Source: an uncultured virus (IMG/VR IMGVR_UViG_3300035208_001228)
Taxonomy: Duplodnaviria > Heunggongvirae > Uroviricota > Caudoviricetes
Virus record (IMG/VR): IMGVR_UViG_3300035208_001228
Reading direction: 5' to 3' (one strand)
Length of the DNA stretch: 33,198 nucleotides
The translations under genes and the position numbers were made by a program. This document shows positions 17,434 to 29,780 of this stretch, one piece after another. Under the pieces are notes generated by a model that made no database searches, was not told the origin of the DNA, and was given only the letters and a program-made list of their open reading frames with translations. The first letter of the stretch is position 1. The number at the start of each line of letters is the position of its first letter.

Positions 17434-19460
17434 TCAGACCGCGATCCATGCAAAATCACAGCCGGTCGAGGCGGTCGTCACATCAGTTGCAACTACCATC
17501 CCATCAGGATCACCTTTGCTCGTCTCCGTCACAATAACGGTCGCCGTGTTGCCCGGCGTTGTCTCAACGACACCGACAGTGAGCGTGTTGCCCGGCGTTG
17601 TCTCAACGACACCGACAGTGAGCGTGTTGCCCGGCGTTGTCTCAACGACACCGACAGTGAGCGTGTTGCCCGGCGTTGTCTCAACGACACCGACAGTGAG
17701 CGTGTTGCCCGGCGTTGTCTCAACGACACCGACAGTGAGCGCACTTCCTGTGCCCGTCTCGGTTACGCTGATAGTTGCAGGGTCGCCGACCAACAACGTG
17801 CCGTCCCCTGTCAATGTAGCCACCTCTTGGTGGCCCAGTGCCCCCGTAAATGTCACGATCCACCCCGACGGGTCTCCGGCGGTGACTTCAATATCACCGT
17901 GTCCGACGTTACTCAAACCCTCCAAGGCGTCCTGCACATCAACAGACGCGGCGTCCCAGGCGATGTTTGCGGTCGTTTGGCCGTCGAACGTCAGCGTGAA
18001 CGTCCCGTTCGTAACGCCGTTCAATACGACTGTCTGAACCGCGTCTGCACCTGCTTCGCCGGTGATGGCATCGACATCCTGATTGGCGAGCAGCCCGCCG
18101 AACGCTACCGTGTGCGGGCCATCGCCGGTCACGGCTACGTCGCCTGGCTCGACACCGTCGATCGCTTCGAGCGCGGCCTGCACGGCAGCACTGTCGGCGT
18201 CGTACGCAATCGGTGCCGTAGTATGCCCGTCGAACGTCAGCGTGAAGGTGTCCCCTGCAATGCCGCCGCTCAGCGTGATGGTTTGGACTTCGTTCGTGCC
18301 GCCCACGCCGGTGATGGCATCGACATCCTGATTGGCGAGCAGCCCGCCGAACGCTACCGTGTGCGGGCCGTCGCCGGTCACGGCTACGTCGCCTGGCTCG
18401 ACACCGTCGATCGCTTCGAGCGCGGCCTGCACGGCAGCACTGTCGGCGTCGTACGCAATCGGTGCCGTAGTATGCCCGTCGAACGTCAGCGTGAAGGTGT
18501 CCCCTGCAATGCCGCCGCTCAGCGTGATGGTTTGGACTTCGTTNNNNNNNNNNCGAGCGCGGCCTGCACGGCAGCACTGTCGGCGTCGTACGCAATCGGT
18601 GCCGTAGTATGCCCGTCGAACGTCAGCGTGAAGGTGTCCCCTGCAATGCCGCCGCTCAGCGTGATGGTTTGGACTTCGTTGGATACACAGACACCGCTAA
18701 TCGCATCTGCGTCTGTGCCCGCCAAAGCATTGATGAACTCGACGGTATAGCCAGTGCTTGTGGCCAGCACAATGACATTTTCACCAAGTTCAGCTTCCAA
18801 TACCGCTTGGACCTCAGCGGCCGTGGCACCATACGCCACCGGCTCAAGTTCGATGGCGCCGTAGGACAGGGTCAGCGTGTCATCGACAGCCCCGCCGGTG
18901 ATGACGATAGTTTGCAATTCATTGATGCACACGCCAATAAGCAGCGGTACGTCCGTTTTGGCTAGGTCATTAACAAACGTAACGGTGTACGGTCCACCCG
19001 CATTCCCCGCGACAGCGACGTTGCCGCTGCCAACCGTAACGAGACCACACAGTGCGGCTTCTACCGTTCCGGCTGCGGCGTTATACGCAAGTGTCGAAGT
19101 CGTAGCACCCTTGAACGTCAACGTGAACTTGCCACTGGAATTGAGCCCAGTCACAGTGACCAACTGGCTAGAATTGCCTATCGGCACAGCGGCAATGAAG
19201 ACAGTGTGTGGGTCGTCCACTTCAAGTTTGAAATACTCGTCGGCTGGCAACGGGAATCCGGTCGTGCTTGACACGTTTGCGTGCCCAACATACAAGACGC
19301 CCGTGTTATTTTTGTTGGCGTAAAGCGTGACGCCTTTGAACACCTTGGCTGGCGCGTAACCTTCAGCGACAATCGGCTTGGCCACGATGTCAACGTGATC
19401 CTGGCCTGTGTAAAACGTGGGCACAGCAGTCTGGAAGCAATCCATCGAAGCGACCCTCAT
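17434..19460 (-). CDS. Repeat-rich virion structural/decoration protein with tandem NEVQ-type ~83-aa domains; spans an assembly gap
   Basis: ORFs 18519..19460 and 17434..18432 read as one gene broken by 10 Ns at 18544-18553. Repeated NE(V/L)QTI...FTLTF-G-TT--IAYDA-AA-VQAALE units. Confidence 0.75.
17545..17739. repeat. Perfect 39-bp tandem repeat x5 (LTVGVVETTPGNT)
   Basis: CGTGTTGCCCGGCGTTGTCTCAACGACACCGACAGTGAG repeated five times without spacers. Confidence 0.97.
18057..18680. repeat. Near-identical 249-bp tandem repeat, at least 2.5 copies, collapsed at the N gap
   Basis: Units start at 18057 and 18306; a partial unit follows the Ns. Confidence 0.95.
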
Positions 19461-21232
19461 TCAAATGTGTTTGCACCTGCGCCACGCTGTTGCGACACGG
19501 TGGAATTGTTCAGAGCGGTGTCGGTAGCACCCATTTTCTCAAGGCTGCCTGCCGTTGGCTCAATGGATAAGTCGCCTGCGCCACGCGCTCCTGCGTCCTT
19601 TTGAGCCGCGATGATTCGCGCGGCGCGTAATGCGTGAGCCTCACGCGCCTTTACGTACTCTTCCTTGTTGAACCCGAGCGCGAGCGAGCCTGTCTCGTCG
19701 CCACACAGACCCTGTTCCATCGCCATTGCAATCGTCTCGGGATCGCTGGTGGTGTACGGGGCCGCGTCAATCTCTTTATTGATCTGTTCGATAACGCTGA
19801 CTGACACTTTTCCGCCTAGAAGTGCTTGCACCGTGCATTTGGCGATTTCACGTTTGGCTATCTGACTGGGAACCTTCGCCATGAGGCCGGTCAACTTCGT
19901 CGATTCGTCGATGCGGTCAGCATCCGTCTTGAGACTGTAGCGATCGGGATACTTGATGACAGGGACCAGACGCTTTGACGGTTCGCGCTCCTCATACGCC
20001 GCCCAGTATTCGGAGAGCAGTTTCTCAGCCCCTTCGAGCACGAGGCCGATGTAGGACAAGCCGTTTTCCAGGCCCTGGTTGTCATACGACTTGGACTCGG
20101 CCGATTGACGCGCGCCCAGTGACGCGACAGCGAGGTTGATGAGAGTCCGTATGTCGTCCTTCAGACTGTCCTGCAACGTCTTCGACGCGATCAAAGGCTC
20201 CGATGACGGGTTGATGAATCCAGGGCGATCGGTCTCTTTGGCGTACAGGATACCCGTCGTGTTGCCGATCCGCATCTCTTTCGCAGTCGCGCCTTGGCCA
20301 CCTTCGGTCGCGGTGCCCTCATGCCCGTCGGGCCCCCTGAGATGCGTCACACCTTCGCGTCCATCGGACTGCCGCGTGAAGATGGGAACATTGGACTTCC
20401 AAGCGTAGCTGACATCACTGCTGGCCAGATTCAACAATGCGATCTGGTGCGTGCATACGTCCTTCAGCAACCCGTCGCCAATGTCAAGTAACACAAACGG
20501 AATCCGCGAAAGTTCAAGTTCGATCGGCTTGTCGTTTGGATTTCCGTCGCGGTCGGTCTTCTCGCCCTTCTCACTGTAGAACTGCAAGGACACCTTGCCA
20601 CGCGCGTCGATCCACAGATAGCGAAATCGCAGCACAGTCGTGTCGGGCAACCCTGTGTCGGCATCGTACGTCATCACTGTGTCGCGGAGCAGCAACGTCT
20701 CAAACTGCGACTGGCCCTCGGAGCGCGATAGTGTAAAGTTACGGATGTCTTCTAGGCGGTATGGATACAGGTACGGCGTAGCACCGACAGTGTCGCTTTG
20801 CCGCGCGCCGGCAGGCACTTCAGGAAAATCGACATACACCCCAACCTTTCCCATCAGCAGCAACTCGGTCAGAACACTCCTGCCACCGATGAATGCGTTC
20901 ATCGACGACCCACGACGATCGACGCCACCATTCAAACCTTCGACGGCCCGCCCGTATGCCGCACTACCACCGGTTCGCCGGACATCACGAAGTCGCTGGA
21001 AAATAGCGTTTCGGATTTCCAGCAACGCGGCCTTCGCGTGCGTCTGAATCGGCGTCATCGACAGCCGCTGCGCGTAGTCCTCCGTAGACTCACGGTTACT
21101 GTACCGTTGAAGATATGTCGTGCGGTAATACGTTCCGCCGTTGAAAGTGTCGCGCCAACAAGTCCAGTCTTGCGACAGCGACTCCCAGAGTGGGAACTGC
21201 GAATTGACGATGTTTTGCTTGACGGGGTCCAT
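19457..21232 (-). CDS. Portal protein, 591 aa
   Basis: YLQRYSNRESTEDYAQRL, LLMGKVGVYVDFP, IPFVLL and QSAESKSYD motifs of SPP1/DUF4055-like portals; downstream of the terminase. Confidence 0.88.
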   Translation of the reverse strand: MDPVKQNIVNSQFPLWESLSQDWTCWRDTFNGGTYYRTTYLQRYSNRESTEDYAQRLSMTPIQTHAKAALLEIRNAIFQRLRDVRRTGGSAAYGRAVEGLNGGVDRRGSSMNAFIGGRSVLTELLLMGKVGVYVDFPEVPAGARQSDTVGATPYLYPYRLEDIRNFTLSRSEGQSQFETLLLRDTVMTYDADTGLPDTTVLRFRYLWIDARGKVSLQFYSEKGEKTDRDGNPNDKPIELELSRIPFVLLDIGDGLLKDVCTHQIALLNLASSDVSYAWKSNVPIFTRQSDGREGVTHLRGPDGHEGTATEGGQGATAKEMRIGNTTGILYAKETDRPGFINPSSEPLIASKTLQDSLKDDIRTLINLAVASLGARQSAESKSYDNQGLENGLSYIGLVLEGAEKLLSEYWAAYEEREPSKRLVPVIKYPDRYSLKTDADRIDESTKLTGLMAKVPSQIAKREIAKCTVQALLGGKVSVSVIEQINKEIDAAPYTTSDPETIAMAMEQGLCGDETGSLALGFNKEEYVKAREAHALRAARIIAAQKDAGARGAGDLSIEPTAGSLEKMGATDTALNNSTVSQQRGAGANTFE

Positions 21233-21789
21233 CAGATTCGCACCTCTGTACGTTCAACGTAGTCCGCCAATGCACGCATCCGATCGGCTGAATCCCTCAC
21301 AAACCCGAGGACACGATTACAGTTGTCGCAGAGAAAGCCCCTGAACGCGCCTGTCTCGTGGTCGTGGTCAAGACACAGACGCTGTGTGCATTCAACCTCG
21401 GGAACGCCACAGACGTGGCACTTGCCGGTGAACGCCGCTGTCACTTCTTCAACCGTTGCAGTGCAAGGTGAATAGCCTAGTTGCTTTGCCGCATGTTGTG
21501 CGCGATAGATTGCCATCTTGAACCGGTTCACTTCTGCGTACTGCTGTCGTTCCAACTTATACACGTCCCTATACACCCGGCACCGTTCACGTTGTTTCGC
21601 CAGGACGCCAGGGCGATTACGGTATGCACGCCGTTTCTTACGCGCCTCAGGTGTACTGTTACGTTCGCGCATCGCTATGCAAAAGCAGTCTTTGCATTCC
21701 GCTCTGCGGCCGTCCGTGACTCTTCGGTCTGTGTAGAACTCGTCCAGTTCCTTTTCAACGCCACACTTTCTACAGACCTTCGTGTTCAT
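21232..21789 (-). CDS. Endonuclease VII-type HNH homing endonuclease, 185 aa
   Basis: N-terminal CxxC...CxxC; C-terminal CHVCG...LCLDHDHETGAFRGFLCDNCNRVLG. Inserted between terL and portal. Confidence 0.9.
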   Translation of the reverse strand: MNTKVCRKCGVEKELDEFYTDRRVTDGRRAECKDCFCIAMRERNSTPEARKKRRAYRNRPGVLAKQRERCRVYRDVYKLERQQYAEVNRFKMAIYRAQHAAKQLGYSPCTATVEEVTAAFTGKCHVCGVPEVECTQRLCLDHDHETGAFRGFLCDNCNRVLGFVRDSADRMRALADYVERTEVRI

Positions 21790-23801
21790 ATTCCCTTGAT
21801 GCTTCGGGTGGTGTCAATCGGTGCGTACTTCAATCCGATGCCCGCATAATTCAATGCGTGTGCAAAGTGGTCCGGTCCAGTGTTGATATAGACGCCGATG
21901 ACTTCACCCATCGGGTTCTTCTCAACCGTCCTCGTCAGGTTCTTCACGTGCGTGCTGAACTCGTCAGGGATGTCGCCAGGCAACCAAATACGCGACGGAT
22001 TGACCTTGAACCGTCCGAGCGTCTTGCCGAGCCATGACGTGCGATCTACCTGCAACATCGGGGCTCCACTGTCTGTGTCCTTGACGGTGATTTCATTGCC
22101 TTCGTTTCCGCCGCGATACCGTGTCGTGGCGGCGAAACCGTCGAACCTGCGACAGAACCTTCGTGCCTCATTCACATTCGGGTCTGCGTCCACGACTGCG
22201 TATAGCACCTGCCACTCGGCCATCAACTGATCGAGTCGATCCCAATCCTCTCCAAAAAACTTACCAACCCAGAGCACCCTGCAAATCGCAGAGTCGCCAA
22301 GGTCCGGGCCGAGTTCGCGGTCGAATAGCCATTCACAAATGACGATGTAGGATTCGCGTTCGCCTTGGTCCACACCCATCGTGATGAGCCGGCCGCTCCG
22401 GGTAGGCCGCAAGCCGTCCATCGAATATGGGCTAGCTGCACAAGCGACTGCATTAGCGATCATCGCGTCAGTCACTTTTGCGCCGGGGCCGACGTAGGGC
22501 AAACCTAGTTTCGAGTTGTGAAACTCTTTCGCCGCGAACTCGTTATTGATTCCCTCGAAATGTGCGACTACCAACTCAGCCGGTGATACGGTGAAAGAGT
22601 ACAACTGGCTGATATGGAAACCGCGAAACTCTTTGTTCGCGTTAGGTGCGGTCGAGACCCATTCAGCGTCGGCCAGAAACTCGGGCTTAGCTTCCTGCGC
22701 CAACCTCGCACCACACTCTTTGCACTTCAGATAGGAGTCCTTGCAACGCGGGTCCGTCGCGTACTCTCCGCAAACCTGAATGCAACCCGGCCATACCAAC
22801 TCTGTCCGCCTGCCGCAATGCGGACACTTGAACATGAAATGTTCTTGCGTCGTGTCCTTGTACAGCTTGTGAATGCCGTGCTCCGGGACGGTTGGTGTCG
22901 AGATGCCCCAGACATGCTTATGCAATTGTCCTGAAAGCCGTTCCAATGCCTGCGCGACTTGCTGGCGGTCCATCCGATCGACCTCATCAAAGATAAGTTC
23001 CGACACAGGAATCGACAGCAGACTATCGCGTCCGCGCGTGCCGCGAATGTACATGCAGTTATTGCCGGCCCGCTTCAAGTTGACCGCGTTGGTGTCGGTG
23101 AACACTGAGTCGAGGTATGGGCTCAGACTTAACGCCGGTCCCAAACGTGACTTGCTGAAATCGCTTGCCGCGCCTTGCGTCGGCATCAAGTACAGCACGT
23201 CCCTCTTCATTCTGTCGATGGTGTACAGTGCGCGATTGATAGCGACCTCAGTGACCCCGAGTTGTGCGCCCTTTAAGACCCAGGTATAAGGCGTCCAACT
23301 GTCGTGCATTTCCCGACACCACGGATGATAGCGCCAAGAGTAATTACCGGCGAAGTCGCCGCCCATGATCCTCCGATGCTGTGCCCACCGCGAACAGGTC
23401 GTCAACGACGTGGCCGTCATATTCTCGGCCAGCGCCGCGTCGAAATCAGCCATCGTGATAGGCATACGTGCTACGATCTCTTGAATGCTGTGCGTGCGGA
23501 GTTCGTCTTTTCCGTTACGCAGAAGGATGAACGTCGGGACGGCTGTGACGCCGTACCGTCTCGCAATGACTGGGTGTTCGTCAATGTCATACCGAGTGAC
23601 CTTCAGACCGGCCTTCTCCAGCCGATCCACAATCGGGGCTGCCGCACGACACGGCAGGCACCACGAGGCGTGGAAGACAAGCAGACTGATCCTGTGTGGG
23701 ACTGGCACATGGATCGGAATCGGGCGCGGTGCGATCACCGACTGCTGACAGCCGGATAAAGCCAGAAGGAGCAACGCGGCTGAGATCAATCTTTGAAGCA
23801 T
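21786..23801 (-). CDS. terL: Terminase large subunit (lambda GpA-type), in frame with an N-terminal lipoprotein signal and thioredoxin domain
   Basis: KGAQLGVTE, YLMPT, LIFDEVDRM, ISTPT, CPHC...CKEC and MGVDQG...DHFAHA motifs. Residues 1-~112 are an LLLLALSGC lipobox plus a WCLPC thioredoxin. Terminase proper may start at 23465 or 23453. Confidence 0.9.
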   Translation of the reverse strand: MLQRLISAALLLLALSGCQQSVIAPRPIPIHVPVPHRISLLVFHASWCLPCRAAAPIVDRLEKAGLKVTRYDIDEHPVIARRYGVTAVPTFILLRNGKDELRTHSIQEIVARMPITMADFDAALAENMTATSLTTCSRWAQHRRIMGGDFAGNYSWRYHPWCREMHDSWTPYTWVLKGAQLGVTEVAINRALYTIDRMKRDVLYLMPTQGAASDFSKSRLGPALSLSPYLDSVFTDTNAVNLKRAGNNCMYIRGTRGRDSLLSIPVSELIFDEVDRMDRQQVAQALERLSGQLHKHVWGISTPTVPEHGIHKLYKDTTQEHFMFKCPHCGRRTELVWPGCIQVCGEYATDPRCKDSYLKCKECGARLAQEAKPEFLADAEWVSTAPNANKEFRGFHISQLYSFTVSPAELVVAHFEGINNEFAAKEFHNSKLGLPYVGPGAKVTDAMIANAVACAASPYSMDGLRPTRSGRLITMGVDQGERESYIVICEWLFDRELGPDLGDSAICRVLWVGKFFGEDWDRLDQLMAEWQVLYAVVDADPNVNEARRFCRRFDGFAATTRYRGGNEGNEITVKDTDSGAPMLQVDRTSWLGKTLGRFKVNPSRIWLPGDIPDEFSTHVKNLTRTVEKNPMGEVIGVYINTGPDHFAHALNYAGIGLKYAPIDTTRSIKGI

Positions 23802-23851
23802 TCATTTTTCTCATTTCGTGCTACGTACTCGGCCAAAGCCAAGATTCGATC

Positions 23852-24141
23852 CGACGACCCACGACGATCGACGCCGCCATTCAAACCTTCGACCGCGCGC
23901 CCGTAGGCGGGGCTACCGCCGGTTCGCAGAACGTCACGAAGTCGCTGGAAATCTGAATCGACGGCATCGACAGCCGCTGACTGTAGTCCTCCGCCGATTC
24001 GCGGTTGCTGTATCGCTGAAGATACGTCGTTCTATAGCACGCGCCGCCATTGAACGTGTCACGCCAACAAGTCCAGTCTTGCGACAGCGACTCCCAGAGC
24101 GGGAAACACGAATTGACGATGCTTTTCTTGACCGGGTCCAT
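23852..24141 (-). pseudogene. 5' fragment of a second portal gene (40-bp deletion, truncated)
   Basis: MDPVKKSIVNSCFPLWESLSQDWTCWRDTFNGG matches the portal N-terminus. Lacks the equivalent of 21003-21042. Homology ends at GVDRRGSS. Confidence 0.9.
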
Positions 24142-24593
24142 CAGATTCGCGCCTCCGCGTGTGCCACATAATCCGCCAATGCGCGCATCCGATCGGCTGA
24201 ATCCGTTGCCAGCCCTAAGATATGGTTACAGTTGGCACAAAGCCAGCCGCGAAACTCGCCAGACGAATGATCGTGAGCCATACACAGGCGCGATGCACAC
24301 TCAATCTCGGGCACGCCACAAGCGTGGCAGCGTCCAGCGTACGCTGACTTTATCTCCTCGACAGTGTAGCCACGTCGCCGAGCATGGGTACGCGCGTTGC
24401 GTATCGCCGTCTTGTATCGCACGGCCACCCTATATTGGCAGCACCGCTCAGGATATTGCCGCTGGTACGTCGCGCCGCATTTCTTTTTACAGACTTTGCA
24501 CTGTGTGGTGCGCCCATCTCTGTGGGTGCAGCTACCGTAGAACTCAGCACGCGGCTTCGTATCACTGCACGTTTTGCAAGTCTTCGTTTCCAA
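24141..24593 (-). CDS. Second endonuclease VII-type HNH (150 aa), probably inactive
   Basis: Paralog of 21232..21789 with TTG start; active-site LDHDH is changed to MAHDH. Confidence 0.75.
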   Translation of the reverse strand: METKTCKTCSDTKPRAEFYGSCTHRDGRTTQCKVCKKKCGATYQRQYPERCCQYRVAVRYKTAIRNARTHARRRGYTVEEIKSAYAGRCHACGVPEIECASRLCMAHDHSSGEFRGWLCANCNHILGLATDSADRMRALADYVAHAEARI

Positions 24594-25322
24594 CTCAGAT
24601 GCCCCTGATGCTTCGGGTAGTGTCGATGGGCGCAAACTTCAACCCCAACGCCGCATAGACCAGACTGTGGGCAAAGTGGTCGGCTCCGTTCCCTGTTGTG
24701 ACATAGACGCCTGCCACATCCCCCAGCGGCCCCTTCTCGACAGTCCGCGTGAGGTTCATAATGTGCGTCTTGAACTCTTCAGGTATATCCTTTGGCAGCC
24801 AGATGCGTGTCGGGTTGACTTTGAATCGCCCGAGCGCCGCGCCGATCCAACTCGTACGATCCACTTGGACCATCGGTGCGCCGCTGTCCGCGTCCTTCAC
24901 GGTGACTTCGTTGCCCGCACTGCCACCGTGATACCGTGTGCGTGCGGCGTAGCCCTCGAACCGACGACAGAACCGGCGGGATTCGCTAGGATCGGGATCA
25001 GCATCGACGACGGCATAGAGAACTTGGAACTCAGCCATCAATTGGTCCAACTGTGACCAGTCACTACTGGGAAACCGCCCAACCCAGAGCACCTTGCAAA
25101 TGGCTGACTCTCCTAGATCGGCACTGAGCGGACGATCAAACAGCCACTCGCAGACTACAACGTGCGAGATTACCTCGCCCTGATCTACGCCCATCGTGAT
25201 GAGCCGGCCGCTTCGTGTCGGGCGCAAGTCGTCCATCGAATGGTCACGAAGCGCGTTATTAAACATGTCGGCCGTGACACGCGGCTTCGTATCACTGCAC
25301 GTTTTGCAAGTCTTCGTTTCCA
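24548..25322. repeat. Identical 45-bp direct repeat at 24548-24592 and 25278-25322
   Basis: CACGCGGCTTCGTATCACTGCACGTTTTGCAAGTCTTCGTTTCCA occurs twice. Confidence 0.97.
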
Positions 25323-25323
25323 T
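24595..25323 (-). CDS. Stand-alone diverged copy of the terminase C-terminal nuclease domain, fused to the first 15 aa of an endoVII
   Basis: METKTCKTCSDTKPR followed by VT..M..SMDDLRPTRSGRLITMGVDQG...APIDTTRSIRGI, colinear with the last ~230 aa of terL. ATG overlaps the upstream TAA. Confidence 0.85.
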   Translation of the reverse strand: METKTCKTCSDTKPRVTADMFNNALRDHSMDDLRPTRSGRLITMGVDQGEVISHVVVCEWLFDRPLSADLGESAICKVLWVGRFPSSDWSQLDQLMAEFQVLYAVVDADPDPSESRRFCRRFEGYAARTRYHGGSAGNEVTVKDADSGAPMVQVDRTSWIGAALGRFKVNPTRIWLPKDIPEEFKTHIMNLTRTVEKGPLGDVAGVYVTTGNGADHFAHSLVYAALGLKFAPIDTTRSIRGI

Positions 25324-25745
25324 TAGATCACTGCGGCGATGACAACGGGACCGGCGACCTTGGCGACTTCGATCGCAATCTTCTCAGCCGCCTCGATTCG
25401 CGCCCTCATGGCAGCACGGCCTTCCGGCGTCTTGATCTTGGCGCCGAGCATTCGCTCGAAGGTGCCTTCCAACTCTTGGATGATCGCAGAATTGCCAGCC
25501 TTAACGATGACTGCGGCATTCTGGATAGCTGTGAGAAGGTCATCAACCTCCCCGACCGTCACTGCCTCCAACGCTTCGGGCAACTTGACCAGGCCGAGTT
25601 TGCGCAACTCGATGGACAAGGCTTGTGTGGCCTTGCGAATGCTGGTCACACTCTTCTTGCCCTTGAAAATCAACTTGCCGATTTCGCGCCCGGCGACAAG
25701 ACACCCGGCCGCCGCCAACACCCATATCAGAATCTGTAGAAACAT
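25323..25745 (-). CDS. N-terminally membrane-anchored helical protein, 140 aa
   Basis: MFLQILIWVLAAAGCLVAG hydrophobic start, helical body and hydrophobic C-terminus. Confidence 0.7.
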   Translation of the reverse strand: MFLQILIWVLAAAGCLVAGREIGKLIFKGKKSVTSIRKATQALSIELRKLGLVKLPEALEAVTVGEVDDLLTAIQNAAVIVKAGNSAIIQELEGTFERMLGAKIKTPEGRAAMRARIEAAEKIAIEVAKVAGPVVIAAVI

Positions 25746-25749
25746 CTGT

Positions 25750-26337
25750 TTACCCTTGCTTCAAAGACGTGGACTGATTACGCCGCGCGCTCACAAGACC
25801 GAGCACGGTGCCGACGACCAAAAGGAACACACAGAGACCGACGCCCCAGTCAGGATCAGTCGGTGCGATGTCCGGCGTCCCACCGTCATCGACTGGATCG
25901 GGTGCCGGATCATCCGGTGTCACCGGGTTTGGCTGTGGACCCGGATTCGGTTGCGGCCGGAGCGGGAAGATGCGATGACGCTGCGCCGCGTTGGCGATTG
26001 CGTTATACAGATCAGCCGGTACTTGCTTACGTGTCGCCTCAAAAATCACGCGCCCCACAGCGTCTTGCACGCGCACAGTCGGGGTGCCTTTGATAGACGG
26101 TTTGTAGTGCTCAAACATCGGATTGTCGGTTGTGACCGGTAGATAGTGGCATTGCTTCCGCAACTCTGCCAGCTTGCCCTCGTGGAATTGCTGAATGATC
26201 GACTGGTACTGCGGGTCGTTTGCGTCCCCGATCACGGAAATGTACCACTTGTCGCTATCCTCGGGCAGCTTGAGAACACGTTCTTCGGCACCGTAGCATG
26301 TCGAGCAGAGCAACACTAGAAAAAAGAAGTATCGCAT
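25750..26337 (-). CDS. Exported protein with possible thioredoxin-like fold (no CxxC), Pro-rich linker and C-terminal TM anchor, 195 aa
   Basis: Signal peptide MRYFFFLVLLCSTCYG; YKPSIKGTPTVRVQDAVGRVIF resembles the Trx cis-Pro region; PQPNPGPQPNP linker; TM WGVGLCVFLLVVGTVLGLV. Confidence 0.6.
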   Translation of the reverse strand: MRYFFFLVLLCSTCYGAEERVLKLPEDSDKWYISVIGDANDPQYQSIIQQFHEGKLAELRKQCHYLPVTTDNPMFEHYKPSIKGTPTVRVQDAVGRVIFEATRKQVPADLYNAIANAAQRHRIFPLRPQPNPGPQPNPVTPDDPAPDPVDDGGTPDIAPTDPDWGVGLCVFLLVVGTVLGLVSARRNQSTSLKQG

Positions 26338-26358
26338 GTATTCACTCAGGGGTAGGAG

Positions 26359-26949
26359 CTATTGGTGCGTGTTGCAGGTTAGTAGCGGCTGCACCCGCTT
26401 CGCTTCACTGGGTGCTGGGGCGCTCGGTGTATACACCGGCGTCACCGCCCACGAATGACTCTTGAACCAGTCCGCTAGGAACTGTTCGCGTGGAATCCAA
26501 ATAACCTGGCCGACTGAATTATTGTCGAGGATGCCAGCGTAATTATCATTCAAAGCAACGAGGCATACCATGTGCGCGTAATTGTTCACGCCGACGGCGC
26601 ATCCACGATGAGTGCGGATGGACCAGTTCAAAAAATTTACGTCCTTCTTCCCGTAGGTCGTCGCGTACCGGATGCCAAGCCGCTCAAAAAGTGGTTCGAC
26701 ATCACTCGGCGACGCGCCATCCCCGCAGTTCTGACGAATCCACGCGGCTGTCACCGGCCGATTCTGCCAGCGGAATAATGTCACGAGGCTGGCCCACACA
26801 CACGAACCTTGTCCCCGCGAACCGCGCCAATTCGTCTGACGTGCCGGCACTGGTACGTCCACGACAACTGACGGCAGCGTCACGGCAGCACAAACAATGA
26901 ATGCGAGTTGTGGGATTATCAGCCGCCACACCGGCGTCAAAGAAGTCAT
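26359..26949 (-). CDS. Papain-fold (C39-like) cysteine peptidase with N-terminal signal/TM
   Basis: Q..GSCVWAS (Cys), AHMVCLV (His), ILDNN (Asp). ATGA coupling at 26949 with GGAG SD. Confidence 0.7.
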   Translation of the reverse strand: MTSLTPVWRLIIPQLAFIVCAAVTLPSVVVDVPVPARQTNWRGSRGQGSCVWASLVTLFRWQNRPVTAAWIRQNCGDGASPSDVEPLFERLGIRYATTYGKKDVNFLNWSIRTHRGCAVGVNNYAHMVCLVALNDNYAGILDNNSVGQVIWIPREQFLADWFKSHSWAVTPVYTPSAPAPSEAKRVQPLLTCNTHQ

Positions 26950-27428
26950 GTTACTACGTTCTCCCGCCGGCAATCCGTTTTCCCCGCGCTGAGTCGAACA
27001 CGCTTTTGATCCTTGCCCATGCGACGCGCAACGAGGTGATGGAGCCGCATACCGTCACTTGACCGCACGACATACCCCGAATAAGACATCCGCCAGGCCC
27101 ATTGGTTCAAGTAGTCGAAGTCTTCACGACTGACGACCGCTTGGCACTGTTCGGAACCTTGCCGCCAGGCCGTGGTGAGCCGAACGGCCTTGAGCGAGAG
27201 ATTGTCGCGTTGGCAGTTGAGTGGGTTCCGGTCATAGAACCGCACGACGCCGTCCTTGTGCATCTCGGGAGACATGCGCAAGGCCACTTCATGTTGTAGC
27301 CGCACGTCGTGCCCGCCGTCCCTTCGAATAACATAACCACCACGCACGTGCCACCTGTGCTGTGCCAGGCAGGCGTCTTCGTCGCTAGTGAACGCAACCC
27401 GACCGTGGGGAAGTTGAATTGTCACCAT
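26946..27428 (-). CDS. Protein of two tandem degenerate HNH_3-like domains, 160 aa
   Basis: Two repeats of A-x-x-S-x-ED...W...GYV-R...RL-H...C-R-N, resembling the HNH of HNH-AP2 endonucleases but lacking the DH catalytic motif. Confidence 0.6.
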   Translation of the reverse strand: MVTIQLPHGRVAFTSDEDACLAQHRWHVRGGYVIRRDGGHDVRLQHEVALRMSPEMHKDGVVRFYDRNPLNCQRDNLSLKAVRLTTAWRQGSEQCQAVVSREDFDYLNQWAWRMSYSGYVVRSSDGMRLHHLVARRMGKDQKRVRLSAGKTDCRRENVVT

Positions 27429-28057
27429 TATTTCAACCGGCGTGGTTTGAGCACAACATGGTTCCGCCGCAAGCGTCTGGCGAGACGGTTGGGGTTCCAG
27501 CGTGAGGCATCATCCGTCAGCAGCAACCCGATTTCACAATATGCTTTCGCCAACCACTCGCTGCAAAAGATTGTGTGAAGGTCTTCGGGCCTAAACAGCG
27601 ACTCGACCCATGACAACCCGATACCAGCCGATCGCATCGCACCTTCTTGATCGTACGGCACCCCGATTGTTCCGACCAAGAAGTCACTCAGCCGCTGTGA
27701 CTCAAAGCTATACAGTGGGCGTGACAGTGGATGTGCCCAGACGCGGCCTTTGTAATTTGTCAGCACGTCATCCAGGCGATGCGCCTGCGTGCCGTTGAAC
27801 AACTTCTGCTGTATCACGCACGGACGCGAGTCGAGCGTCGTCGATTCAAACAGCAACAACTCACCACGGTGCTCGGCCATGATCCCGACGTGTGACAGAC
27901 CCCAGCGCGGAACACCGAGAGTGACGACGTTGATAATGTCGCTGAGCCCGCATGCCCCGCTGAATCCGAGCAACGTTCCTGGTTGCAGGTTGGCAGTGGC
28001 TGCACCCACTTCGCCCGCAGACGCTTGATCGCGGTCTGGAATCCACTTCTTGGCCAT
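27428..28057 (-). CDS. Permuted papain-like NlpC/P60 (YiiX/YebB-like) amidase/peptidase
   Basis: LQPGTLL, SHVGI (His), ESTT, VPYD and FCSEWLAKAY (Cys after His). Confidence 0.85.
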   Translation of the reverse strand: MAKKWIPDRDQASAGEVGAATANLQPGTLLGFSGACGLSDIINVVTLGVPRWGLSHVGIMAEHRGELLLFESTTLDSRPCVIQQKLFNGTQAHRLDDVLTNYKGRVWAHPLSRPLYSFESQRLSDFLVGTIGVPYDQEGAMRSAGIGLSWVESLFRPEDLHTIFCSEWLAKAYCEIGLLLTDDASRWNPNRLARRLRRNHVVLKPRRLK

Positions 28058-28164
28058 CACTGTAACCCTATACACACACACGACTTAGCGAATTGGCTTG
28101 TCGCGCAGCCCGACAGCCCGATGCTACATATACTATAGGGAAAAACAGCGACTTTAGGCCAGAA

Positions 28165-29109: not shown

Positions 29110-29490
29110 ATGAAGGCTTTGTCAATCGAGAACAGCATGGTCCAAGCATTCCGGGAGCAGGTCCGCGAGTACCAACCCACTGCTGAAGGGATAGGACTGC
29201 TACCCGAGCCAGGCGGTAGCATCGAGAACCTTCGACGACTGGGGCGTGACATCCTCGCCGTTCTGAACGGTACACACGTGCTGGTGGTTTTCAAGACGGG
29301 CGAGACCTACCTGACCAGCCTGCCGCCCGGTCCCGAGTTGGCCGATCTCCTGACCGAGTTGAACCAGGGCGACTTTGTGGACCGCGACGAGCTACTCCGC
29401 ACATTTGCGACGTGGCCGACCGACCTTGAGGGACCACTACCTATAACGGGTGGCATAGGAAAAGCGCCGTTTGGCCAGTCGTTACCTTAG
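29110..29490 (+). CDS. Hypothetical protein, 126 aa, divergent from the recombinase homolog
   Basis: 3' part of ORF 28615..29490 starting at ATG 29110 (MKALSIENS...); globular-looking composition. Confidence 0.55.
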   Translation: MKALSIENSMVQAFREQVREYQPTAEGIGLLPEPGGSIENLRRLGRDILAVLNGTHVLVVFKTGETYLTSLPPGPELADLLTELNQGDFVDRDELLRTFATWPTDLEGPLPITGGIGKAPFGQSLP

Positions 29491-29780
29491 TTTGGCCAGT
29501 CGTTACCTTCCGTTTTGCGCTCAACAACTCGATTGGCCCTTACGTATTCAACGACTTACGTCTCAGCAGGCCAATCGAGTTTCTTGGCTGCTACATTACA
29601 CGCTATACTATTCTTGTTTTGACTACGGTCCCAAACACGTTTGTATATGGCTAAATGTAGCAAACAAGGAACTCGATTGGCCTGCTGAGACGTAAGTCGT
29701 TGAATACGTAAGGGCCAATCGAGTTGTTGAGCGCAAAACGGAAGGTAACGACTGGCCAAACTAAGGCAACGACTGGCCAA
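29471..29780. repeat. Long inverted repeat: 127-bp arms (29471-29597 / 29654-29780, 4 mismatches), 56-bp spacer, nested sub-repeats
   Basis: Direct reverse-complement comparison. Confidence 0.95.

Follow-up and report, generated by a model that had tools for sequence, protein, structure and literature searches.

How does a phage genome come to carry, upstream of its packaging genes, a second and diverged piece of those same genes? The question is posed by region 23852-25323 of IMG/VR record IMGVR_UViG_3300035208_001228, an uncultured virus of the Caudoviricetes, of which a stretch of 33,198 nucleotides (nt) was analysed (hereafter the window, whose numbering is used for all positions). There, the 3' end of a large terminase subunit gene (terL), a gene for an endonuclease of the endonuclease VII type (endoVII) and the 5' end of a portal gene lie between an upstream gene, X, and an open reading frame (ORF) that joins a thioredoxin (trx) to the resident TerL. 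We hold with moderate confidence that what is seen here is a genuine, inherited scar, left when two related phages recombined illegitimately around a free-standing Endo VII-motif homing endonuclease. Its products are mostly relics: the endonuclease looks dead and the portal stub is frameshifted, while the terL piece has stayed an intact ORF. Free-standing homing endonucleases are believed to gain new sites through rare illegitimate repair, which has been shown mainly in engineered crosses of phage T4; Parker, Belisle and Belfort reportedly treated such illegitimate repair of double-strand breaks in 1999, in one-sided intron homing of that phage. Here, a natural phage from environmental metagenomes keeps the traces of such an event nearly complete, with the endonuclease, both donor flanks, both odd junctions and the disrupted recipient gene.

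The whole region is encoded on the minus strand, and gene order is given in the direction of transcription: gene X, an ORF of 242 amino acids (aa), the inner endonuclease gene HEG', the portal fragment P', the remnant 'c', the resident trx-terL, the resident endonuclease gene HEG1 and the resident portal gene. The individual parts are as follows:

25323..25745, minus strand: gene X, the upstream neighbour, 140 aa in the ORF list, function unassigned
25278..25322, minus strand: first copy of 'a', 45 bp that repeat exactly the beginning of the inner endoVII gene (ETKTCKTCSDTKPR), joined in frame to the terL fragment
24595..25323, minus strand: intact 242-aa ORF, made up of 15 endoVII N-terminal residues and T', the last 227 residues of an evidently foreign TerL
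24141..24593, minus strand: HEG', the inner endoVII-type endonuclease gene, 150 aa from the TTG at 24593; Pfam PF02945, E 2.7e-14
24548-24592, minus strand: second copy of 'a', the start of HEG'
23852..24141, minus strand: P', the 5' fragment of an evidently foreign portal gene, placed by alignments and exact matches to the resident portal
23786..23851, minus strand: 'c', a remnant resembling an endoVII C-terminus, DRILALAEYVAR with the tail NEKNECFKD*, in frame with P'
21786..23801, minus strand: resident trx-terL ORF, 671 aa, with a lipoprotein-like signal, a thioredoxin and a gpA-type TerL; PF00085, PF05876, PF20454
21232..21789, minus strand: HEG1, the resident endoVII-type endonuclease gene between terL and portal; Pfam PF02945, E 7e-18
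19457..21232, minus strand: resident portal gene, 591 aa; PHROG 145 portal protein, E 7.3e-34

As the original prediction from the bare sequence had proposed, the block 23852-25278 runs parallel to the resident terL-endoVII-portal segment: it is a second, diverged terL 3'-endoVII-portal 5' unit that aligns with 20903-22472. Over 225 codons the terL 3' ends are 72% identical in aa (in nt, most 60-nt windows are 58-80% identical); HEG' and HEG1 share 43% aa identity (BLAST), and the portal pieces 85.5% aa identity in the first 62 codons and 93.8% in 32 further codons. HEG' is thus embedded in donor flanks, with 684 nt from terL' and some 290 nt from portal'. P' lacks 40 nt (the equivalent of 21042-21003, with the gap between 23952 and 23951), which shifts its frame; the final 24 nt of P' match the resident portal exactly, and homology ends abruptly at 23852. 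Synonymous divergence (dS) drops along the block, from more than 2 in terL, where it is saturated (proportion of synonymous differences, pS, 0.72; nonsynonymous divergence, dN, 0.22), to 1.05 at the endonuclease C-terminus and 0.63 and 0.43 in the portal. The dN/dS comparison of the two blocks, which had likewise been proposed, gives 0.09 for terL, 0.22 for the endonuclease C-terminus and 0.07-0.15 for the portal, values that mostly reflect divergence before the transfer and tell little of later selection.

The N-terminal halves of HEG1 and HEG', presumably their DNA-binding halves, are riddled with indels and barely alignable, and their last 66 codons are 65% identical. Together with the falling dS, this indicates that the two genes have a 3' half and portal flank of more recent common origin. 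Compared directly (21235-21500 versus 24144-24350), they combine a similar catalytic half and downstream portal flank with very different N-terminal halves, a pattern that looks like domain swapping between two endonucleases holding the same terL-portal site in different lineages.

The affinities of the terL piece point outside the resident lineage. In a tree of TerL C-terminal domains (12 rows), T' pairs as sister, at support 99/97, with P0001 (a TerL of 559 aa on a different contig), and the resident TerL groups with P0002 and P0003, the latter on a 12,048-base contig of L005, the closest relative among the loci compared. This placement agrees with the proposed origin from a related phage, and by its phylogenetic affinity the block is foreign. 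The closest full-length TerL that a search of 5.8 billion proteins gave for T' reaches 72% identity. The phage itself has no cultured close relative (its TerL is at most 28% identical to that of any GenBank phage), and a genome contig scan with terL returned no prophage relative.

T' is predicted to be a complete, undecayed RNase H-like nuclease domain. The 242-aa ORF matches PHROG 675, terminase large subunit, over profile positions 329-548 of 576 (E 3.5e-20), and has no match in Pfam. Its AlphaFold2 model (pLDDT 88.4, pTM 0.87) has TerL nuclease domains as top Foldseek matches (5m1f, E 1.7e-7; 5tge; Sf6; T4 gp17; also D6E), and T' (24598-25278) shows both the fold and the conserved acidic residues of TerL RNase H-like nuclease domains. 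It keeps 46 of the 49 columns with at least 90% conservation across 68 TerLs, all invariant Asp and His among them; of the three changes, two also occur in P0001, and the branch length of T', 0.18, equals that of P0001. The absence of any difference between the two 45-bp copies suggests that the event was recent enough to explain the intactness of the 242-aa ORF.

The block is bordered on both sides by sequence resembling the ends of an endoVII gene. Upstream, the 45-bp repeat is exact (24548-24592 = 25278-25322, 45/45), just as the original prediction had stated, and in each copy its first base is the second of the start codon (ATG 25323-25321, TTG 24593-24591). Downstream and precisely at the block end, the stretch DRILALAEYVAR at 23851-23816 matches endoVII C-termini in 8/12 residues, which substantiates the C-terminus-like stretch noticed earlier: it is the best non-self match among ~66,000 six-frame window positions (the runner-up has 6/12), and a match of 8/12 was reached in 0/30 shuffles. 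Counted by eye, 'c' shares 24/36 nt (67%) with the 3' end of HEG', and its ALAEYV recurs in the C-termini of the family members L031, L041 and L042. The further claim, that a resident endoVII gene had been the recipient, is supported in that the flanks do resemble both ends of such a gene; given the mismatch in identity, 100% in 'a' versus 67% nt in 'c', the two halves need not derive from one resident gene.

In the relatives compared, the X-trx site is unoccupied. The resident TerL recovered 21 related IMG/VR loci, one of which, L004, is the present element. In three of them (L004, L006 and L013) terL and portal are separated by an endoVII gene; in the other 18 the two genes are adjacent without it. 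In L005, the closest relative, both sites are empty: the end of terL (7662) and the start of portal (7671) are 8 nt apart, and 9 nt separate the gene X stop from the trx start. L006 likewise has a short spacer between X and trx (9-15 nt across L005 and L006), and gene X homologues are found directly upstream of trx-terL in L005, L006 and L018. From these empty sites it follows that about 1.5 kb were added between X and trx in the lineage of the window.

The endonuclease family is thus sporadic at one conserved site, with empty-site alleles among relatives, and evidently behaves as a mobile gene. A CX2-4C...DHDH...R...CX2C...N motif defines the Endo VII-motif (DHHRN) homing endonucleases (PMC6083498). 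HEG1 carries the complete form, CxxC-DHDH-R-CxxC-N, and reads CHVC...LDHDHETGAFRGFLCDNCN; 683 GenBank phage records match it at no more than 33% identity, annotated as endonuclease VII or HNH endonuclease. The PF02945 match falls at residues 106-179 of the 185 of HEG1 and at 93-157 of the 164 of HEG', that is, in the C-terminal half, a motif position that appears to fit the endonuclease clade and not the resolvase clade. In HEG' the active-site motif is AHDH instead of DHDH (it reads MAHDH, with the Ala codon at 24278-24276), at a position where HEG1 and every other family member recovered with the motif have Asp. This first Asp (D40 in T4 Endo VII) is an active-site metal ligand according to the same source, and HEG', which is devoid of it, is probably inactive as a nuclease.

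The arrangement is no assembly artefact. In four public runs, which come from three studies, 99-100% of the words sampled from 23400-25800 are present, and the Logan contigs of these runs, placed on 23000-26200, provide the junction evidence. One contig spanning 21161-24091 with zero mismatches crosses 23852 by more than 200 nt per side, and a 745-nt contig (24563-25307, zero mismatches) runs from one 45-bp copy through T' into the other copy and bridges the junction at 25278 by 30 nt. Breaks in the Logan contigs fall solely at the exact repeats of 45 and 38 nt. The four segments are similarly deep within each run (in run X3: 38.7, 38.1, 40.9 and 44.7), and the repeats stand at about twice that depth in all four (in X3, 79.7 for the 45-mer and 79.4 for the other repeat, versus 38-45 elsewhere). 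In three of the four runs the T' contig is less deep than its neighbours (ratio about 0.75-0.83; 1.0 in X3), which might reflect a subpopulation from which T' was removed when the 45-bp repeats recombined, a loss that contig depths cannot show. The assembled path is the only linear one that uses the connections from X to 'a', 'a' to T', T' to 'a' and 'a' to h' once each, and the same structure recurs, at 99.97-100% identity, in two differently named public contigs, IMGVR_UViG_3300014205_001182 and Ga0172381_10004432.

How, then, could this structure have arisen? Both novel junctions, 25278 and 23852, are in frame. At the former, endoVII codon 15 is joined to the middle of terL', and at the latter, portal' codon ~110 to the last ~20 endoVII codons. 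We infer that a third endoVII gene once occupied the X-trx site, of which there would remain its beginning, or else a templated copy of that of HEG', and the final ~20 codons. During co-infection, a double-strand break in or near this resident gene may have been repaired by copying from a foreign genome, whereby 1.43 kb comprising the TerL nuclease end, HEG' and the portal start would have been acquired; both ectopic homing and microhomology-mediated repair are conceivable pathways. A backward template switch may have copied the 45-bp start ahead of terL'-HEG'-portal', and a final microhomology join would have linked the copy to the remaining endoVII tail. The event would then comprise two non-homologous joins, 'a' to T' (25278) and P' to 'c' (23852), each probably primed by microhomology. 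At the first, 'a' ends in CCGCGTG and the homologous spot in the L005 terL reads GCGCGGG followed by TCACGG, so that an overlap of 4-6 nt (CGCG(T)G) is possible and microhomology plausible but unproven; at the second, an overlap of 1-6 nt is possible, depending on the lost sequence.

Several observations weigh against this account. The supposed donor genome was not found: IMG/VR scans with T' and HEG' returned this element and relatives of at most 39% identity, and a scan of JGI metagenome contigs with HEG' returned this element and distant relatives only; the junction microhomology is consequently deduced from relatives and not seen directly. In the one further scan, of IMG/VR with P0001, its own contig was not among the returns. 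No intact endoVII gene lies between X and trx in the three X-trx-terL loci (L005, L006 and L018), so that the relative with an occupied site that the original prediction would lead one to expect did not turn up there. An N-terminal piece identical to HEG' at 100% beside a C-terminal piece at 67% nt would be unexpected from a single resident gene. The case for 'c' is itself exposed: by tblastn its stretch reaches E = 0.073 window-wide only, and a profile built from 17 other family members misses it at E <= 100 (the search of its 32-aa ORF against 1.84 billion representatives, with 0 matches, is a weak test for so short a query). The lack of decay in T' fits a very recent event but also selection. 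Finally, all four runs that bridge the junctions are flagged as possible sources of the window, and their evidence consists of contigs rather than read pairs.

Among the alternatives, one survives best, although we regard it as unlikely. It holds that the locus marks the seam between two genome modules: an illegitimate whole-genome crossover at the P'-'c' junction would have produced a genome with two terminase modules, followed by a deletion that began at codon 15 of the endoVII gene upstream in the left parent and reached the middle of terL'. The left parent would have contributed X, its own upstream endoVII gene, trx'-terL', HEG' and the portal' start, and the right parent the endoVII tail 'c', trx-terL, HEG1 and portal. 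The number of odd junctions needed is the same (two), and the identities that trouble the repair account are explained with ease, the 100% match of 'a' to HEG' by paralogues in one parent and the divergence of 'c' by its descent from the other. Such a history, however, requires a viable intermediate about 3 kb over length and a left parent with two endoVII paralogues with identical starts (METKTCKTCSDTKPR), and no such genome was seen. The upstream genes speak to both sides: they do not side with the resident terL lineage, but they are equidistant and not clearly of P0001 type. Gene X is 63% identical to its homologue in L005 and 67% to that on the P0001 contig, with a tree that forms a polytomy, and the gene for a 217-aa protein further upstream is 77% versus 76% identical to the two lineages, so that upstream-gene affinity gave no decision between the orders of events.

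Alternatively, the terL piece may have been retained for a function, with the 242-aa ORF selected as a stand-alone TerL nuclease domain that is translationally coupled to gene X. We consider this improbable. It would account for an ORF that is intact and whose start overlaps the X stop (TAATG, formed by the TAA of X and the ATG of the ORF), for a fragment that starts near a domain border and is predicted to fold as a whole nuclease domain, for in-frame junctions and for a structure identical in four runs; the conserved columns noted above, with two of the three changes shared with P0001, and a T' branch no longer than that of its functional sister point the same way. A recent event explains the intactness equally well, however, as the 45-bp copies differ nowhere, and the neighbours are decaying (the portal stub is frameshifted and HEG' has lost its catalytic Asp). 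Neither the IMG/VR scan nor the search of 5.8 billion proteins found a second lineage with such an ORF. The retained domain might act together with the catalytically dead, DNA-binding HEG', for example against the packaging or the DNA of competing relatives. That the captured piece was kept as such a weapon or decoy against close competitors is a long shot; if true, it could cut or occupy a rival's terL-portal region or concatemer, and would be a domesticated by-product of homing-endonuclease warfare.

An in-situ tandem or segmental duplication of the resident terL-endoVII-portal stretch, followed by divergence, would explain the shared gene order and orientation of blocks only 2.9 kb apart and their exact common stretches of 18-38 nt, but is very improbable, since T' is sister to the TerL of another lineage (the copies are not each other's closest relatives), the N-terminal halves of the endonucleases can barely be aligned, and the saturated synonymous divergence of terL, in an ORF that is still intact, excludes it. 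Equally hard to credit is a chimeric assembly of two co-occurring strains, the alternative against which the original prediction itself had set its reading: the exact 45- and 38-nt repeats could mislead an assembler, and G001, a near-identical record, breaks elsewhere, at a tandem repeat, yet both non-homologous junctions are bridged by k-mer contigs in four runs with even segment depths and twice that depth at the repeats, the structure recurs in two separately named contigs, and the assembled order is the only linear path that uses each connection once.

With recombination around a mobile endonuclease as the favoured reading, the locus can be set beside known systems. For phage T4, a review (PMC2988022) describes one-sided homing, in which homology exists on one flank alone and double-strand breaks are repaired illegitimately with microhomology at the junctions; introns could by this means enter ectopic sites. 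The likeness extends to an endonuclease gene moved with donor flanks into a site without full homology, to non-homologous and perhaps microhomologous junctions, and to a possible route to ectopic sites. In contrast to the laboratory cross with its known cleavage site, the present case is a natural product known from its sequence alone; furthermore, both donor flanks are retained here, and the recipient is itself an endonuclease remnant. F-CphI of cyanophage S-PM2 (PMC6083498) likewise has the Endo VII motif in its C-terminal half (the full motif in the case of HEG1), and is likewise free-standing in a phage, beside essential genes and sporadic among relatives. It differs in its N-terminal domain and in possessing the first Asp of DHDH that HEG' lacks, and the genes described here are known only as sequences. 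An apparently defunct HEG' beside an apparently intact HEG1 in one genome also recalls the pair mobE/I-TevIII of T4 (PMC2790892), in which a defunct endonuclease reportedly undergoes trans-homing through an active neighbour, and unlike which HEG' and HEG1 occupy different sites 2.9 kb apart and are recognised as co-occurring from the genome sequence.

The predicted fold of the 242-aa ORF resembles isolated TerL nuclease domains, namely those of G20c (5m1f), P74-26 (5tge), Sf6 gp2 (5c10) and RB49 gp17 (3c6a), with E 1.7e-7 to 1e-3, TM scores of 0.5-0.6 relative to the target and 9-16% identity. In contrast to laboratory truncations of TerL, a natural ORF here encodes the domain alone, preceded by 15 foreign N-terminal residues.

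Both the process and the endonuclease family are known, and what the locus adds is a natural example with an unusually complete record of the event. It provides a concrete sequence example of the movement of an element between sites and lineages, and of two endonucleases competing for the terL-portal site, and it illustrates how partial duplicates of essential packaging genes originate in phage genomes. It is also a warning for annotation: a second 'terminase' ORF and an extra 'portal' stub may be scars and not genes.

The surroundings of the locus deserve some remarks. The stop of 'c' (23788-23786) lies 12 nt inside the trx-terL ORF, whose start is at 23801, and a scan of 21000-27500 for promoters and terminators returned counts at chance (2 versus 2.6; 6 versus 6.0). 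Gene X has no match in Pfam or PHROG. The trx-terL ORF (21786-23801, minus strand) unites a thioredoxin with a lipoprotein-like signal peptide (LLLALSGC) and TerL in one frame. The same fused ORF is present in L005, L006, P0002, P0003, P0007, P0020, P0040 and P0042; PF00085 and PF05876 occur together in 7/67 TerL matches, and others, such as P0001, begin at an internal Met. The frame may yield two products or represent a true fusion.

The post-portal genes (17434-19460, minus strand) contain a perfect 39-nt x 5.1 array as well as 249-nt and 137-nt repeats (17545-17741, 18057-18680), which encode repeated TLTFDG...AAVQAALE modules with tail-like PHROG matches. G001, which represents the same virus, ends at 17631-17741 in the 39-nt array and is not informative on the 23852-25323 region, and an IMG/VR contig ends beside the 10-N run of the window (18544-18553). 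As two public records end in or beside these repeats, their copy number is unsure. In L028 and L036, which represent the same element, three mismatches near 29463-29593 are followed by 123 nt that match 29658-29780 inverted, which could be an inversion or an artefact of a contig end.

Further upstream, an ORF of 160 aa (26946-27428, minus strand) consists of two similar halves (HRWHVRGGYVIRR... / WAWRMSYSGYVVRS...) and is present in L005 at 35% identity; it has no match in Pfam or PHROG, and presumably recalls the N-terminal repeats of some HNH/AP2-type phage endonucleases. The neighbouring 217-aa protein (27428-28081, minus strand) has 235 homologues at E <= 1e-20, one cluster of which carries PF05708. 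For one distant homologue the source gives a Thermoguttaceae metagenome-assembled genome as the origin, a possible hint at a planctomycete host that serves only as a lead.

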